Assembly (NCBI RefSeq): GCF_041916015.1 | Contig: NZ_JAYSAH010000019.1 | Coordinates: 353 to 64,352 of the forward strand | Origin: Sphingopyxis sp. | Lineage (GTDB): Bacteria > Pseudomonadota > Alphaproteobacteria > Sphingomonadales > Sphingomonadaceae | Direction of reading: 5' to 3' | DNA: 64,000 bases | In this document: in pieces, positions 1 to 4,921 of the stretch | Position numbering within the stretch: the first letter of the stretch is position 1 | Layout: each line of letters opens with the position of its first letter | The notes under the pieces: generated by a model | Told to the model about the DNA's origin: nothing | The model's input: only the letters and a program-made list of their open reading frames with translations | Database searches by the model: none | Position numbers and translations under genes: made by a program

Positions 1-2
1 AG

Positions 3-149
3 CGCCGCGCCGACTTGCTGCCGAGGCATGGCTACAGTTTAGTCGTTCTCAATGTGGATGAATTCGCGCACGATAGGGCCAAGCGCCTGCTCAGGACCCA
101 TCAAGATCAGGCCATTGTCAGCCGCCGCCTTGCAAGTTTTATCGGCTGA
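3..149 (+). CDS. 3' end of a CDS truncated by the window edge; hypothetical protein, possibly nuclease-like
   Basis: Open frame from base 3 to TGA at 147-149 (RRADLLPRHGYSLVVLNVDEFAHDRAKRLLRTHQDQAIVSRRLASFIG*), co-oriented with the next gene 28 bp downstream. Product not established. Confidence 0.45.
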   Translation, partial: RRADLLPRHGYSLVVLNVDEFAHDRAKRLLRTHQDQAIVSRRLASFIG

Positions 150-177
150 TTAATGGATATCAAGGCAATGGTGCAAA

Positions 178-954
178 ATGGCTAATGAACCTCGCACCCC
201 ACGGCTTGCTGTCTTGATTGACGCAGATAATGCATCCTCCCGGATCGCACCGCGCCTTTTTGAAGAGATTGCCAAGATCGGTGAGGCAAGTGTTCGCCGC
301 ATTTACGGCGATTTCTCCGGGACTAGGCTTAAATCATGGGCCGACGTTCTCGCCACGCATGCGATCAAGGCGCACCAGAACTTTGCGTACACCAGCGGCA
401 AGAATGCTTCGGATATCGCTTTGGTCATCGACGCGATGGATCTTTTGCATACCGGTCGGTTCGACGGGTTTTGCCTTGTCTCTTCCGACAGTGATTTTAC
501 CGGGCTGGCCTCGCGTATCCGTGAGCAGGGGATCGATGTCTACGGCTTCGGAGAGCAGAAAACTCCCGAGAGCTTCCGGCAAGCCTGTCGCCGTTTCATC
601 TACACCGAGAACCTACTGCCGGAGGCGCAAACGTCAGATGAACTTGGCCGACTGGATACCCGTCCGGCTAGCGTAAAGAAGTCGCCCACTGCTGCCGCAC
701 CCTTGATCCGAACTGCCATCTCACAGCTCGATGATGAAGGGGGCTGGGTGCCTCTAGGGCGGGTGGGCCAACGCCTCGCAGCGCTCGCCTCAGACTTTGA
801 CCCCCGAACTTATGGTGAAAGCAAGCTGAGCGACCTGGTCGAGAAGGCCGGCGGCTTTGACTCACGCAGAACGGAGACCGGGCATTTGCAAATCCGGGTC
901 TCTCCGTCTGGGAAGACGGGCCAACCTAAACCCCAAAAGGCAACAGCCGGATGA
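178..954 (+). CDS. NYN (LabA/DUF88, PIN-like) RNase with C-terminal OST-HTH/LOTUS domain
   Basis: Motifs LIDADN, RRIYGDF, GKNASDIALVID and SSDSDF; C-terminal GWVPLGRVG...FDPRTYGESKLSDLV is typical of OST-HTH. Confidence 0.9.
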   Translation: MANEPRTPRLAVLIDADNASSRIAPRLFEEIAKIGEASVRRIYGDFSGTRLKSWADVLATHAIKAHQNFAYTSGKNASDIALVIDAMDLLHTGRFDGFCLVSSDSDFTGLASRIREQGIDVYGFGEQKTPESFRQACRRFIYTENLLPEAQTSDELGRLDTRPASVKKSPTAAAPLIRTAISQLDDEGGWVPLGRVGQRLAALASDFDPRTYGESKLSDLVEKAGGFDSRRTETGHLQIRVSPSGKTGQPKPQKATAG

Positions 955-1007
955 AAGCCCGGCTGCCTCCTTGCGCTAACCAATACCTTTTCTGACGCCT
1001 TTGGGGC

Positions 1008-1028
1008 ATGCGACCGATAATGTCGTAC
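1008..1028. promoter_or_regulatory. Palindromic operator ATGCGAC-N7-GTCGTAC, DriD/WYL-box-like
   Basis: Perfect CGAC-N7-GTCG core ending 20 bp upstream of ATG 1049; 12/14 match to ATACGAC-N7-GTCGTAT, the Caulobacter DriD consensus as I recall it. Confidence 0.5.
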
Positions 1029-1048
1029 ATGGGTCATATCAAAGCGCG

Positions 1049-2512
1049 ATGAGCAGAAATATTCGAACAAGCACCACTGATCCGATCCAGATCCCTACAC
1101 TTCCGGCCGCATCAGGACGCATCGGCATATCCTTCTGTCCAGGAAAACAAGGGCCTGCGCTCGCTGGCTTTACCTGGAAGCGTGATCTTGCGACCGATCT
1201 AGACGCGGTGCGTGGGTGGGGGGCTGCCGCTGTCGTCTCTCTGATTGAGAAGCACGAGATGGAGCTGCTGGGGGTCGCAGACCTGGAGACTGCGGTTGCT
1301 GCGCGTGGGATGGAATGGTTTCATCTCCCAATCCCCGACGTCACCGCTCCTGGCGAGGAATTCGAGCAACGATGGCACACGGCCGGAGCCCGGCTGCGCA
1401 GTCTACTCACCGACGGGAAAAGCGTCTTTATCCATTGCCGGGGAGGGCTGGGCCGAGCCGGCACAGTGGCGGCGAGACTGCTCATCGAACTTGGCCTTGC
1501 TGACGCTAGTGGTGCAATCGCTCACGTTCGTGGCGTCAGGCCTGGCGCCATTGAGACGAAGGCACAAGAAGATCACTTGCGAGAGATCGAGCGTATCTAT
1601 GATTGCTCATATGGCTGTTTGGTTGGACTGGCGGTCGGAGATGCTGTGGGGGCGACGCTCGAGTTCAAGCCGCGCGACAGCTATGCCCACATCACGGACA
1701 TGGTCGGGGGAGGGCCATTCGGCTTGGATGCCGGGACCTGGACCGATGACACCTCCATGGCCCTTGCGCTGGGAGAAGCTCTGCTCGCCAGCGCGGCCAA
1801 GGGCTCGGCGTTTGAGCCGGGAGAAGCACAACGGCGCTTTGTCGATTGGTGGAGGAACGGCGCCTTCAGTCCCACGGGCAGTTGTTTTGATATCGGGATC
1901 GCAACCCGGCAGGCCCTTTCTCGGTTCGAGGAAACGGGCGACCCGATTGCCGGCTCGACCGATCCGTACTCAGCAGGCAACGGCTCACTAATGAGGCTCG
2001 CGCCAGTCGCGATCTGGGGGATACAGCAAGATCCCGCAGTAGTGACACGAGTAGCCCGCCTACAGAGCATGACCACGCACGCTGCAGATGCGTGCCTCGA
2101 GGCCTGTGAAGCGTATGCACTGGTCTTGCGGGCGGCTATCCTAGGTGCCGACTTTGAGGAAGCACTGGCGGTTCCCTCGGGCGAATATGGACCGGAGGTC
2201 GGTCCAATCATGGCCGGTAGCTGGCGCGGGAAAGCACGCGATCAGATTGCGAGCAGCGGATTCGTCGCGCACAGCCTCGAAGCAGCGATCTGGTCCGTGG
2301 CAAACACGACGAGCTTCGACGACGCAGTGCTGTTGGCAGCCAACCTCGGTGAGGATGCCGACACTACTGCCGCAATTGCCGGGCAGTTGGCTGGCGCAAT
2401 TTACGGCGCATCGTCGATCCGCCGATCATGGCTAGAAAAGCTGGCATGGCGCGACAAAATTGAGAATCTCGCGCGTAATCTGGCGTTCCCGGCAGTCGCG
2501 CTCTCAAACTAA
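1049..2512 (+). CDS. Fusion of a CX5R (CDKN3/dual-specificity-like) phosphatase and an ADP-ribosylglycohydrolase (ARH/DraG family)
   Basis: N-terminal HLPIPD loop and HCRGGLGR P-loop (1433-1456). C-terminal GDAVG, WTDDT (from 1739), GNGSLMR and GEDADTTAAIAG motifs. ATG 1049 preferred over TTG 1001. Confidence 0.9.
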   Translation: MSRNIRTSTTDPIQIPTLPAASGRIGISFCPGKQGPALAGFTWKRDLATDLDAVRGWGAAAVVSLIEKHEMELLGVADLETAVAARGMEWFHLPIPDVTAPGEEFEQRWHTAGARLRSLLTDGKSVFIHCRGGLGRAGTVAARLLIELGLADASGAIAHVRGVRPGAIETKAQEDHLREIERIYDCSYGCLVGLAVGDAVGATLEFKPRDSYAHITDMVGGGPFGLDAGTWTDDTSMALALGEALLASAAKGSAFEPGEAQRRFVDWWRNGAFSPTGSCFDIGIATRQALSRFEETGDPIAGSTDPYSAGNGSLMRLAPVAIWGIQQDPAVVTRVARLQSMTTHAADACLEACEAYALVLRAAILGADFEEALAVPSGEYGPEVGPIMAGSWRGKARDQIASSGFVAHSLEAAIWSVANTTSFDDAVLLAANLGEDADTTAAIAGQLAGAIYGASSIRRSWLEKLAWRDKIENLARNLAFPAVALSN

Positions 2513-2693
2513 CGTCGCGGCCGATACATGGCAGCGATCGGCGGCGTTGCTGTTCGGCCCGCATTGCTGCCCATGGGCACATAATGTGTCATGCTTGATG
2601 CCCTATCGGTGAATTAGCGGATAATGCGTCAGGTTCGACCCTTTACAGAAGGCCCCCGGCGGCGGGATCAGACGGCAGGCTTGGCCCAATTAC

Positions 2694-3818
2694 CTACAAC
2701 GGGATCTTGGTCCCAGAAATACGTGCGGGGTCCAAGCCTGCCTCCTCCGGCTGGAGGAACCGCGGTTTCGATTTGTCTGGATCAAACGAGGCGCCCGTCT
2801 TCCACATTGCCATCATGATCACAGCGAGCTTCCTTGCGACGGCAACGCGAGCCTTGAGAAATCCGATCTTTGTTGCCAGCCGGAGGCCCCAAGTACGCAA
2901 TGAACTTTCGGTTTTGATTGTGCGAAGCAGCACGGTGGCTGCCGTGATTAGGTGCGACCTGGTCAGCTTGTTTCCGTAACGGCTGATCCGGCCGCGGCGC
3001 GCGGTGGCGCCGGATTGATACAGATTGGGCGTTAGGCCGAGATAAGGCCCGACATCTTGATTGCTTCTAAAGCGGTACGGGTCTCCGACGGCGCTGTAAA
3101 ATGACAGCGCTGTAATTGTCCCAACGCCAGGAATCGTCTGAAATCTGGCGCAAACCGGGATGCTGGCGGCCATTGTGCGCATCTTTCGATCCATATCCCA
3201 GATATGAGAGCGCAGTTCTTCTCCCATCCTGACCAGGGGATCCAAATCGACGCGGATCGTCACGCCGTTGGTCCTCAAAAGCCTGAGTTGATTCGCGACT
3301 TCAGCTGCGAGCGATCCTCGCCCATGCAGGAGCTTGATACTGGCACCGTGCAATCTGAATATGGACTGGAGCAGCGCATCCGTCCTGGCTCGATGCTTTA
3401 GCAGGGTTCGACGGATGTTGATCATTATCCGGATGTCCTGGTGCTCCACCGGTTTGATGAAAACATGGGGACCGAAGGACTGCGCCAGTCGGCCAAGCTC
3501 AGCGAGACCTTTGGCATCATTCGCATCAGTCTTTTGACGTCGGATCGCCAGGAATTTGCTTGATTTGCGAACGTCGACGACTTGAACGGGAAACCCGAAT
3601 GAACGGAGATCCCGAACCATTTGAGTGCCGACACCGGCCTCGATCGTAATAGACTGGACAGGCTCAACGCCGAACCGTCGAAGGATATCTCTTATCGGAG
3701 CAGCGCGGGTCTCAGTCATTGCCTCGAAGAAAACGTGTCCTTCGACATCGACGAGGCAGACCGCAGTCTCCAAGTGGCCGGCGTCGAGGCCGACCCAGTA
3801 GCGCAGGTGCCGTGGCAT
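2694..3818 (-). CDS. IS110-family transposase/recombinase (DEDD RuvC-like domain plus Tnp serine domain)
   Basis: GLD12, IE60, KTD98ANDA (D101), TIPGVG, YLGLTPNLYQSG, ARKLAVIM; GGGAG RBS before the ATG. Confidence 0.9.
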   Translation of the reverse strand: MPRHLRYWVGLDAGHLETAVCLVDVEGHVFFEAMTETRAAPIRDILRRFGVEPVQSITIEAGVGTQMVRDLRSFGFPVQVVDVRKSSKFLAIRRQKTDANDAKGLAELGRLAQSFGPHVFIKPVEHQDIRIMINIRRTLLKHRARTDALLQSIFRLHGASIKLLHGRGSLAAEVANQLRLLRTNGVTIRVDLDPLVRMGEELRSHIWDMDRKMRTMAASIPVCARFQTIPGVGTITALSFYSAVGDPYRFRSNQDVGPYLGLTPNLYQSGATARRGRISRYGNKLTRSHLITAATVLLRTIKTESSLRTWGLRLATKIGFLKARVAVARKLAVIMMAMWKTGASFDPDKSKPRFLQPEEAGLDPARISGTKIPL

Positions 3819-3937
3819 TGTGCTCCCGTACGACGTTTGTTTCTTTCGCTTGCCCTACTGACCTTGTCGGGGCTGTCCGACTAGGATTCGTCCTCCGGCA
3901 TGTGATAGTGAGGTAGGAAATCGAAGGAGATGATAGG

Positions 3938-4549
3938 ATGGGGCCGCGGGAGGCGTTGGATGGCCTAATCAGCGAGCGAGGAGAGACCTACGCATCAATT
4001 TCGCGCCTCCTCGGGAGAAACTCGGCATACATCCAGCAGTTCATTAAACGAGGTTCTCCAGTCCGCCTTGACCAAAGCGATATAGCGCTGCTGGCATTGC
4101 ATTTTGACGTGCCCGTAGAGAAGCTCGGTGGAAAGGAGGGGCCGACGGTCGGGCAGCGTTCGATAGTCAAAGTCCCCTTGCTGAACGGGACAGGTAACGA
4201 TTCACGCTCACAATGGCGGCTGGTTGATGCGGCTTGGCTCGGTCGGCTGTGTGATCAGCCCGCCAGTGTCGCAATCTTGCCAATCGTTGGCGAGGCGATG
4301 GAGCCCACCCTCTGCAATGGCGACGAGGTTATGATTAGCCGAGTTCGCTTCCAGGAAAGCGTGCGTGAAGGCCTTTACGCCATCCGTGGGTCTTCTGAAA
4401 TCTTCGTAAGGCGAATAGCGATCGACCCAACGAAGAACCGTCTGACCGTTCTTACTGACCACCCTGCATATCCGAGCTGGCAGGGCATCCCGCGCAAGGG
4501 CGTCGATATTGTCGGCCGGGTGATCTGGATCGGAGCTCGGGTGACCTAG
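3938..4549 (+). CDS. HTH + S24-like (LexA/CI-type) transcriptional regulator with degenerate peptidase active site
   Basis: N-terminal HTH (TYASISRLLGRNSAYIQQFIKRGSP); S24 fold motifs VGEAMEPTL, GDEVMI, GLYAI, FVRRI, IVGRVIW. Confidence 0.8.
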   Translation: MGPREALDGLISERGETYASISRLLGRNSAYIQQFIKRGSPVRLDQSDIALLALHFDVPVEKLGGKEGPTVGQRSIVKVPLLNGTGNDSRSQWRLVDAAWLGRLCDQPASVAILPIVGEAMEPTLCNGDEVMISRVRFQESVREGLYAIRGSSEIFVRRIAIDPTKNRLTVLTDHPAYPSWQGIPRKGVDIVGRVIWIGARVT

Positions 4550-4759
4550 CTGTCATTATGACACCGCGCTGCCTGAGGCTCTAAGCGGCCATCCCAGCGT
4601 GCGATGCTGGTGCGGAGCAAGATGGGTAGCAGTCGCGCTGGCTGGGAGGTGAAACGACGACTCGCACAAGCGCAGTCGGACAAAGCGCAGGCCATGAATC
4701 TTTCACCGTGAACGCTGATGTGCGGAGGCTGAGCAGCCGCAGTGCCGAATTAGCGCGCT

Positions 4760-4780
4760 GCTACCTAGAGAGCTACCTAG
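4760..4780. repeat. Tandem direct repeat GCTACCTAG x2 (4760-4768, 4772-4780), possible integrase arm-type sites
   Basis: Exact 9-bp repeats with a 12-bp period, ~65 bp from the tRNA 3' end. Confidence 0.5.
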
Positions 4781-4845
4781 CACAAAAATGCTCTCAATCG
4801 CCCGATCCGGCGACCTTAGTATCTGATTGAAAAGTAGGGGGAAAA

Positions 4846-4921
<76 letters not shown>

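Follow-up and report, generated by a model that had tools for sequence, protein, structure and literature searches.

A probable counterpart of the locus described here is ICE6 of Sphingopyxis granuli TFA, an 81-kb integrative and conjugative element (ICE) that lies beside a tRNA-Lys gene and carries S24 protease and WYL regulators, with the defence systems Hachiman and BREX as cargo (bioRxiv 10.64898/2025.12.11.693706). The present analysis concerns a 64,000-nt stretch of a Sphingopyxis sp. genome (contig NZ_JAYSAH010000019.1; hereafter the window), whose first 4845 nt (the block) adjoin a tRNA-Lys(CTT) gene. The block holds the end of a gene here called u218, a gene for an NYN-LOTUS protein, a fusion of a Cys phosphatase with an ADP-ribosyl(arginine)hydrolase (PTP-ARH), an IS110-family insertion sequence (IS) and a gene for an S24 regulator. 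Compared by description only, the two elements share genus, tRNA-Lys site, S24 regulator and defence cargo, and they probably belong to the same family. The preprint differs in that it mentions no NYN, PTP-ARH or this IS, and no flanking repeats were found there.

A sequence-only reading of the block had taken its genes for one inducible conflict unit. Comparison with homologous and sibling loci (referred to by L-numbers) did not sustain this idea: homologues of the genes do not co-occur outside one island lineage, and the pieces separate from each other and are lost or replaced independently. The block is probably the mosaic cargo end of a tRNA-Lys island, made of independently moving pieces, and not one system. 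Its most interesting component is the PTP-ARH fusion, a very common and uncharacterised combination of a phosphatase with a Tri1-like hydrolase.

The following inventory is based on an open reading frame (ORF) listing, a tRNA search and composition. The gene list given earlier (a truncated gene, an NYN protein, a phosphatase-ARH fusion, an IS110 recombinase and a non-cleavable LexA-like repressor) was correct, as was the observation of a lower-GC block next to the tRNA gene: the GC content of 1-4845 is 0.583, compared with 0.655 in the remaining window.

1-149, plus strand: 3' end of u218, its last 49 codons, read in the frame from base 3 (window 3-149).
178-954, plus strand: NYN + OST-HTH/LOTUS protein of 258 amino acids (aa), assigned by Pfam.
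937-972, plus strand: imperfect hairpin with 14-nt arms across the NYN stop codon, at the right edge of the u218-NYN cassette.
992-1021, plus strand: promoter-like match (CTGACG-18-GATAAT) before the fusion gene, a consensus match only.
1049-2512, plus strand: PTP-ARH fusion of 487 aa, assigned by Pfam, NCBIfam, an AlphaFold2 (AF2) model and Foldseek.
2520-3894, minus strand: IS110-family insertion sequence of about 1.37 kb, with the recombinase coding sequence (CDS) at 2694-3818 (374 aa).
3938-4549, plus strand: helix-turn-helix (HTH) + S24 (LexA/CI-like) regulator of 203 aa, assigned by Pfam, phrog_4 and alignment.
4550-4845, no strand: non-coding arm of 296 nt from the S24 gene to the att core, conserved with the island in all copies.
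4846-4890, minus strand: att core, the 3' 45 nt of tRNA-Lys (anticodon loop to CCA), carried by the island and placed by the endpoint of identity.
4846-4921, minus strand: tRNA-Lys(CTT), the integration target, with its 3' end towards the block; the core genes rodA-mrdA-mreDCB follow.

Separability of the block's genes

The conservation of the gene set was assessed around homologues of the fusion. Counts of PTP-ARH loci come from a genome scan of species representatives and refer to the matches listed (at least 600), so that a lack of close homologues among them is no sign of rarity. Among the 80 genomic loci from these matches, about 28 are full-length, and NYN-LOTUS lies near the fusion in one of them, L008 from Novosphingobium. 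There, T5orf172, CoiA-like and REase-ARP nuclease genes stand between NYN-LOTUS and the fusion, and the other neighbours of L008 recur in none of the other loci. When the neighbours of the 28 loci were clustered, only mobile-element genes recurred, namely DUF2924 with a large serine recombinase (7 of 28 loci) and a ParB-methylase with DUF5681 (4 of 28). This neighbourhood analysis and a PADLOC comparison had both been proposed in the sequence-only reading as checks on its defence unit, and both came out against it: PADLOC-DB v2 contains no defence model matching NYN-LOTUS, PTP-ARH, IS110, S24 or u218.

The pieces also come apart in the sibling and homologous loci. PTP-ARH is found without NYN in L090, L091, L109 and L114, the gap from NYN to PTP-ARH measures 2.7 kb in L008 and 5.4 kb in L092, and the IS with S24 is present without NYN or PTP-ARH in L108, L116 and L123. 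Homology is lost at 962 in L008 and at 918 in L092, just past the NYN stop hairpin. It restarts at 997 in L109 and at 1009 in L008 and L092, which marks the left edge of the PTP-ARH cassette, near the promoter-like site. Since the genes are separated, lost and replaced independently, with breakpoints in intergenic gaps, they are regarded as separable cassettes.

A palindromic operator had been described at the fusion gene. Weak hairpins only were seen there, and the promoter regions share no motif. Upstream of the fusion, the sole structure is the imperfect hairpin at 937-972, and the short inverted repeats at 2516-2571, past the fusion stop codon, fall within the right end of the IS. The promoter-like match at 992-1021 does not rise above the numbers obtained with shuffled sequence, and neither promoters nor terminators are more numerous than expected from shuffles. 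No motif is common to the region upstream of S24 and those upstream of NYN or the fusion. Low-depth (3-25) metatranscriptome contigs span all four genes; as contig-level data in which DNA is possibly included, they are uninformative about operons and give weak evidence of expression.

The tRNA-Lys island and its surroundings

Comparison of homologous copies identifies the block as the tRNA-side terminus of a mobile island, spread horizontally among Sphingomonadales. Window 1-4890 has a 99.9%-identical counterpart in L001, a metagenomic contig of 103 kb, in which ABC-2/RND/TetR genes then follow in place of the 5' half of the tRNA and rodA. The identity of L110 and L112 to the window ends at 4890 too, with a copper-resistance cluster beyond. 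Because three contexts with different right-hand neighbours end at one base, the att boundary is placed there, after the 45-nt sequence TGGTGGACGCACTAGGGCTCGAACCTAGGACCCGCTGATTAAGAG, and tandem stacking of islands is deduced. Such accretion at one att site can be followed in each of these loci. Efflux genes (ABC-2/RND/TetR) lie between the tRNA fragment and the intact tRNA in L001 (14714-20777), and MerR, Cu-ATPase, CopCD and multicopper oxidase genes lie between the 45-nt fragment and the intact tRNA in L110 (7200-14856) and L112 (4737-12393).

The block of L109, L111 and L113 matches the window at 93-96% identity, against about 70% for the neighbouring rodA-mrdA genes. Overall, island copies at tRNA-Lys/rodA reach 88-99.9% identity in several genera, compared with about 70% for the core genes. 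Identity of 90-99% is seen for the S24 and PTP-ARH proteins in Croceicoccus, Blastomonas, Sphingobium, Novosphingobium, Porphyrobacter and Erythrobacter, and the core genes of the window cluster with Sphingopyxis. Complete genomes with the island include those of Croceicoccus sp. YJ47 (CP067087.1), where S24 is near 3.099 Mb, and Sphingobium sp. RSMS. Typical signatures of an island are present, namely insertion in the 3' part of a tRNA gene with the displaced segment supplied by the element, and atypical composition. That the block is the end of a genuine island integrated in tRNA-Lys, as first proposed, is thus supported by the 45-nt tRNA boundary and by an island more similar than the core genes.

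In L109, genes for a TraG-like type IV coupling protein (T4CP) and a TrwC relaxase stand 2-8 kb leftwards of the fusion; therefore, at least this sibling appears to be conjugative. No T4CP, relaxase or type IV secretion system (T4SS) genes are found within 10 kb in L001, the near-identical copy of the window island. The proposed element would be an integrative one, conjugative in at least one sibling, inserted in the segment of tRNA-Lys(CTT) from the anticodon loop to the 3' end, beside rodA in the Sphingopyxis chromosome.

Further features were noted near the att core. The 9-mer GCTACCTAG forms a perfect tandem repeat (two copies, 12 nt apart) at 4760-4780, at a distance of 65-85 nt from the att core; in sequence it is similar to CTACCT, the core of the motif next to the end of the IS (window 3913-3920), and it is a possible arm site for a recombinase or a recombination directionality factor. 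An IS66-family element (TnpA/TnpB/TnpC with PRiA4_ORF3) occupies the same point of the spacer between S24 and att (about 4665) in L108 (8850-11916) and L111 (5982-9048). On the opposite strand of the tRNA gene, window 4848-4921 (plus) gives an Rfam match to 'Plastid-ycf2 5'UTR' of 33.9 bits against a threshold of 65.7; this sub-threshold match, antisense to tRNA-Lys, was dismissed as an artefact of the tRNA-like structure.

The L090 island ends differently, with PTP-ARH, a 407-aa gene and tRNA-Leu(GAG), and has no NYN, IS or S24, as would be expected of a related island that sits at another tRNA and has an end gene not yet recognised. In islands without the IS and S24 (L090 11504-13269, L008 11501-12763), a minus-strand gene of 407-420 aa follows PTP-ARH; it has no Pfam or PADLOC match.

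Defence genes lie to the left of the block in sibling copies. To the left of the window start, L001 contains AddB-like and AddA-like (UvrD + PD-(D/E)XK) genes, two unknown genes and an SNF2-type helicase gene, all with island-like GC content. Complete Azaca systems are found directly upstream of the cargo block in L088 (1-5124) and L090 (3180-9270), with E-values of 3e-69 for ZacA, up to 3e-177 for ZacB, and 3e-203 and below (to 0) for ZacC; DUF6361 is ZacA according to two preprints. The AddB-like and AddA-like gene pair precedes the Azaca position. That position is taken in L001 (3626-9189) by a divergent trio with weak matches to ZacB (3e-07) and ZacC (2e-15) and none to ZacA. The earlier description of a hotspot of conflict genes is therefore well founded, given Azaca and AddAB-like helicase-nuclease genes just upstream in sibling copies; ZacABC, complete in L088 and L090, lies outside the window and is not among the genes of the block.

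The pieces of the block

The gene u218, truncated by the start of the window, encodes 218 aa in full (L001 9316-9972). Its counterpart in Sphingobium cloacae, likewise located upstream of NYN, is 74% identical, and the gene travels with NYN in sphingomonad islands; no match was obtained in Pfam or PDB. The S. cloacae island (L093 1-10484; AP017655.1) is another island, in which the u218 homologue and NYN-LOTUS are accompanied by a Bub-type cluster (BubE, ThiF/DUF6791, Multi_ubiq), a RES-Xre toxin-antitoxin pair, a UvrD-Zn-ribbon helicase gene and a tyrosine integrase gene, followed by Trb transfer genes.

The NYN-LOTUS protein matches Pfam NYN (2e-36), OST-HTH/LOTUS (8e-13) and phrog_37744 (2e-55), and its acidic motifs LIDADN and SSDSD are present. 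It is presumably a PIN-like RNA nuclease with a LOTUS domain that would bind RNA or a partner. The same NYN + OST-HTH/LOTUS architecture is known from MARF1-type proteins, to which it is compared together with the bacterial LabA/DUF88 proteins; unlike these, the window protein is short, has a single LOTUS domain and is borne by a mobile element. We know of no characterised bacterial NYN+LOTUS member. There are more than 8000 homologues, 75-94% identical across classes. The gene is carried by 387 plasmids, where it adjoins repABC, rep genes or a T4CP operon, and is found as well at the end of a Trb-type ICE, after the u218 homologue in the S. cloacae island and at a core-like chromosomal site in Phenylobacterium; a few phage or phage-plasmid records also contain it. 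Its distribution is that of a widespread stand-alone accessory gene of plasmids, conjugative elements and chromosomes. The first piece of the block would consequently be a u218 + NYN-LOTUS cassette with a predicted RNA nuclease.

The PTP-ARH gene stood as an ORF on the plus strand, with its start codon moved from TTG 1001 to ATG 1049. The protein consists of a Cys phosphatase (about residues 20-185), a long linker helix (171-202) and a Tri1-like ADP-ribosyl(arginine)hydrolase (about 195-487). Pfam assigns PTP-SAK and Tc-R-P (above cut-offs), DSPc, and ADP_ribosyl_GH (5e-68). In an alignment of 18 homologues the phosphatase P-loop H129-C130-R-G-G-L-G-R136 and D97 are invariant, as are D198, D233, D234, T235, D436, D438 and their neighbours in the ARH domain. 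In motif terms, the HCxGGxGR loop, the PIPD aspartate (the candidate general acid), GDAxG, WTDDT, GNGSLMR and DADTT are all kept.

Several lines of evidence place the ARH domain closest to immunity proteins. It scores 330.6 bits against the NCBIfam Tri1 model NF041672, below the equivalog cut-off of 490, and 141 bits against DraG (TIGR02662; cut-off 337). The best PDB sequence matches are the Tre1-Tri1 entries 6DRE/6DRH (1e-69). These are also the best Foldseek matches of the AF2 model (probability 1.0, 44% identity, rmsd 1.4-1.9 Å), followed by a Thermus ARH and the Listeria immunity pair of an ADP-ribosyltransferase (ART) and an ARH (8ZA7), which shares the ARH fold. The association of ARH with conflict systems, already pointed out in the sequence-only reading, is borne out by this proximity to ART-toxin immunity proteins in NCBIfam, PDB and Foldseek. 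Tri1 of Serratia proteamaculans confers immunity to Tre1, a T6SS (type VI secretion system) ADP-ribosyltransferase toxin; the hydrolase domain of PTP-ARH is 44% identical to it, with intact motifs for metal and ribose binding. The match to NF041672 covers model positions 61-355 of 361, so that the N-terminal toxin-binding part of Tri1 is absent from PTP-ARH. In place of this toxin-occluding extension (model positions 1-60), PTP-ARH has the Cys phosphatase; furthermore, it has no adjacent toxin gene and is located in an ICE-like island rather than a T6SS locus. DraG has the ARH fold and Arg-ADP-ribose chemistry in common with PTP-ARH, but the match is much weaker and there is no DraT or nif context.

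Phosphatase residues 60-183 find their best PDB matches in SsoPTP, Tk-PTP, ShufPTP and DUSP23 (5e-18 to 2e-08). With these small Cys phosphatases, including human DUSP23/VHZ, the domain shares the HCxxGxxR P-loop and the candidate general-acid Asp; it differs in being fused to ARH and in matching the conflict-associated Pfam families PTP-SAK and Tc-R-P. The fusion has more than 8000 relatives, and the full-length architecture is about 55% identical over thousands of proteins from many Alphaproteobacteria, Acidobacteria, Gemmatimonadota and others. To our knowledge, no experimental study of a PTP + Tri1-like ARH fusion exists.

The AF2 model has a pLDDT (predicted local distance difference test) of 92.7 and a pTM (predicted template modelling score) of 0.92, which indicates that the two domains may be held in a fixed mutual arrangement. 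Separate genes for ARH and a CDKN3-like PTP overlap by 4 nt, in the order opposite to the fusion, on plasmid p546-4 of Roseomonas haemaphysalidis (L194 5965-7487; NZ_CP061181.1), adjoining genes for an SOS-response-associated peptidase and a uracil-DNA glycosylase family protein. Joint action of the PTP and ARH domains is proposed because of the conserved fusion, the high pTM and these overlapping genes. Kinases recur near these phosphatases: a 1026-aa Ser/Thr protein kinase with tetratricopeptide (TPR) repeats is encoded between NYN-LOTUS and PTP-ARH in L092 (4696-7776), and a HipA-like kinase fragment follows the dual-specificity (DSP) phosphatase in L126.

Since the closest solved relatives of the ARH domain are immunity proteins against ADP-ribosylating toxins, PTP-ARH is most likely an orphan antidote or immunity enzyme carried as island cargo. 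Tri1 homologues reportedly protect against non-cognate toxins by enzymatic reversal, which offers a precedent for this idea. The second piece would then be a single-gene cassette for a bifunctional 'eraser', in which the Tri1-like ARH would strip ADP-ribose, most likely from arginine, and the rigidly attached SsoPTP/DUSP23-type phosphatase would strip phosphate from the same or a related target. The enzyme may reverse marks that competitors install with ADP-ribosylating toxins, in the way Tri1 counteracts Tre1, or marks made by other conflict systems.

The IS recombinase at 2694-3818 scores 194 bits against NCBIfam NF033542 (cut-off 140) and matches Pfam PF01548 and PF02371 (DEDD_Tnp_IS110, Transposase_20). 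The IS has about 174 nt of non-coding sequence on the 3' side of the recombinase CDS and about 76 nt on the 5' side. Its ends, taken from alignments and from the drop of identity in L115 and L118, are approximate, to about ±35 nt on the S24 side. One lies near 3894, 44 nt ahead of the S24 start codon and beside a conserved TCCT.C..TTTCCTA motif (alignment of the upstream side); the other lies near 2520, 7-9 nt past the fusion stop codon (alignment of the 3' side with L123, whose recombinase is 82% identical). The sequence-only reading had counted the IS110 gene among the components of its module. It is instead an inserted, discrete mobile element, because L124 and L126, where the IS is 59% identical to that of the window, have in common only a 1345-bp unit with the recombinase (83% at the nucleotide level) in otherwise different surroundings. 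Over the interval of about 2500-3900, L115 and L118 show 77-90% identity to the window, against 95-97% on both flanks. Since the drop is confined to the IS interval, a different IS variant must have occupied the same site, an exchange that would fit site-specific targeting. Such targeting is known for the IS110/IS1111 family (Durrant et al. 2024, PMC11208160).

The position of the IS is highly constant. In all of the approximately 24 contexts that show S24 and its upstream side, the recombinase or IS is adjacent; the element is degraded in L113, where the recombinase is pseudogenised, and truncated in L119 and L120. No second site of the window IS was seen, with no other copy in the window and no blastn match in PLSDB. 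No bridge RNA was recognised for it: Rfam gave no family besides tRNA, the 3' flank of the IS folds no better than shuffles (z = +1.08), and an 8-mer scan found no consistent guide match of at least 8 nt between IS ends and flanks. RNAalifold on six IS variants gave four compensatory pairs with a positive (penalising) covariation term, that is, weak covariation. In comparison with the bridge-RNA-guided IS110/IS1111 elements, the window IS shares the domains, the size of about 1.35 kb and a recurrent specific site; it differs in having no recognisable bridge RNA and in its fidelity to one site across 52-59% divergence. L108 (2525-7881) shows a junction within the recombinase gene, whose last ~13 codons differ and overlap by 4 nt with an operon of AAA_22, 237-aa and DEAD-helicase genes that replaces PTP-ARH. 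The breakpoint (window 2732) falls within an arm of a 14-nt inverted repeat over the recombinase stop codon (2674-2687/2729-2742). The third piece would be this site-specific IS110-family element, landed 44 nt upstream of the S24 gene.

The S24 protein matches Pfam Peptidase_S24 over residues 104-196 and phrog_4 ('transcriptional repressor') over residues 11-199 (2e-19), and is 95-99% identical across Sphingomonadales genera. In an alignment with E. coli LexA and UmuD, Ala (GEAMEP) stands in place of the catalytic Ser119 of LexA and Arg (VRRI) in place of Lys156, and no Ala-Gly occurs at the aligned cleavage site. Both changes are kept in relatives 87% and 53% identical (all three aligned family members). 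The view that S24 is non-cleavable was accordingly correct. The complementary proposal of a damage- or ssDNA-responsive block was not supported: without the Ser/Lys dyad no self-cleavage, and hence no direct RecA/ssDNA response, is expected, and neither the window nor the 10 kb to its left contains a WYL gene. The sole WYL gene near a copy of the block (WYL + WCX) is located in L111 (125-1117), two genes upstream of a transposase-truncated ARH remnant.

With CI/SetR/LexA repressors the window protein shares HTH and S24 fold and a position at the element end next to att; it differs in the missing dyad and cleavage site and in the IS in its upstream region. It is best read as the element's own CI/SetR-like regulator, a putative pseudo-protease. 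Non-cleavable prophage repressors, such as those of the Gifsy phages, are inactivated by antirepressors. As the fourth piece, this HTH-S24 protein may be induced, if at all, through a partner such as an antirepressor.

Alternative readings and implications

Several observations weigh against a mosaic of independent pieces that includes an orphan antidote. NYN lies directly upstream of PTP-ARH in about 12 of the 18 informative contexts of the island lineage, which makes this the commonest arrangement, and relatives of some of these genes, 41-59% identical, turn up together again in a different order. L124 contains a gene for ARH only (58%), a homologue of S24 (52%), the IS (59%) and AbiE, and L126 has the IS, an NYN-LOTUS gene (41%) and a different HCxxGxxR phosphatase of the DSP type; the latter is judged by its N-terminal HCxxGxxR domain alone, the DSPc-rve-HipA_C ORF being a probable read-through of fragments. 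Such recurrence may stem from selection for co-occurrence instead of common descent. Pfam scans of the neighbours revealed no ART domain, and no cognate ADP-ribosyltransferase came to light. No integrase, left att copy or transfer genes are seen for this copy in the window and about 10 kb to its left, which is explained by a window that begins inside the island and a leftward view of about 10 kb (L001). Finally, the functional statements on the island proteins rest on homology.

A single inducible conflict module for defence or counter-defence, in which u218/NYN cuts RNA, PTP-ARH erases ADP-ribose and phosphate marks and the S24 repressor controls both, would explain why all these genes are on the plus strand of one lower-GC block, in a defence hotspot beside Azaca, and why NYN adjoins PTP-ARH in most copies of the lineage. 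S24/ARH and NYN/DSP also partly re-occur by the 59%-identical IS in L124-L127. Nevertheless, such a module is quite improbable, given no co-occurrence outside the lineage, breakpoints between genes and independent loss of each, an IS between PTP-ARH and S24, no shared operator motif, no PADLOC match, a non-cleavable S24 protein and no WYL gene in the window or 10 kb left. A looser version, in which NYN-LOTUS, Cys phosphatase, Tri1-like ARH and dyad-less S24 are a selected 'guild' on mobile elements, is doubtful. If it were true, PTP-ARH would be a broad-spectrum eraser with two activities for protein marks installed by toxins or defence systems, NYN-LOTUS its partner RNA nuclease, the pseudo-protease repressor the governor of both, and the promoter region of the repressor a dedicated landing site for a bridge-recombinase IS. 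The IS itself has another possible role: recombinase and divergent S24 could constitute the island's own module for integration, excision and control, as a giant bridge-recombinase element. The recombinase adjoins S24 in all ~24 visible contexts, next to att/tRNA-Lys in the close family; the pairing is kept at 59%/52% identity in L124, no tyrosine integrase lies within 10 kb, and the recombinase gene of L108 overlaps the downstream operon. However, the comparison of L124 and L126, where unrelated contexts share the IS as a separate unit of 1.35 kb, led to the rejection of this role as the principal explanation, and it is hardly credible. The IS segment is swapped independently of its flanks in L115/L118, the island of L113 persists with a pseudogenised recombinase, and no bridge-RNA-like structure or guide complementarity was found. 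An anticodon-loop crossover with a 45-nt copy of the tRNA 3' end, which is said to be the classic signature of tyrosine integrases, also points elsewhere.

For the fusion, the main alternative to an orphan antidote is an anti-defence or establishment function of the element itself, in which PTP-ARH, possibly with NYN-LOTUS, would undo ADP-ribosylation by the recipient (DarT-like, ART-based) on entry. Jumbo phages encode ARH-only homologues (45-47% identical), homologues of the fusion are seen in prophage-like elements, at the recombinase end, and the fusion is 2 kb from the relaxase gene in L109. Moreover, orphan ADP-ribose-removing enzymes of phages are known to neutralise DarTG1 (10.1101/2024.07.11.602962). 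This explanation is unlikely, since the nearest characterised relatives are immunity proteins with protein-arginine hydrolase activity, not DNA-ADP-ribose hydrolases, and the full-length fusion is absent from 50,697 phage records. A DraG-like housekeeping regulator, reversing endogenous ADP-ribosylation or phosphorylation of a host protein and present in the island incidentally, would accord with membership of the DraG superfamily (TIGR02662, 141 bits) and with homologues in the chromosomes of many phyla, some annotated as DraG-like. It is highly improbable in view of the far better score against Tri1 than DraG, a patchy, horizontally transferred distribution with at least 90% identity across genera, and neighbourhoods made up mainly of mobile-element genes, in which no ART, nitrogenase or other metabolic partner is conserved.

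With the block read as the mosaic cargo end of a tRNA-Lys island, the proposed new defence system dissolves into familiar island parts and should not be counted as a new system. What it leaves is PTP-ARH, which could be tested cheaply as a candidate mobile antidote with two erasing activities and no dependence on a toxin, and an IS110-family element that recurs upstream of an island repressor, a natural case of target fidelity by a bridge recombinase. At the level of the family, a single kind of island is found near-identical in at least six genera of Sphingomonadales, at tRNA-Lys beside rodA, where it stacks in tandem with islands for metal resistance and efflux and has Azaca in its cargo; such a family is a useful tracer of gene flow among these environmental bacteria.

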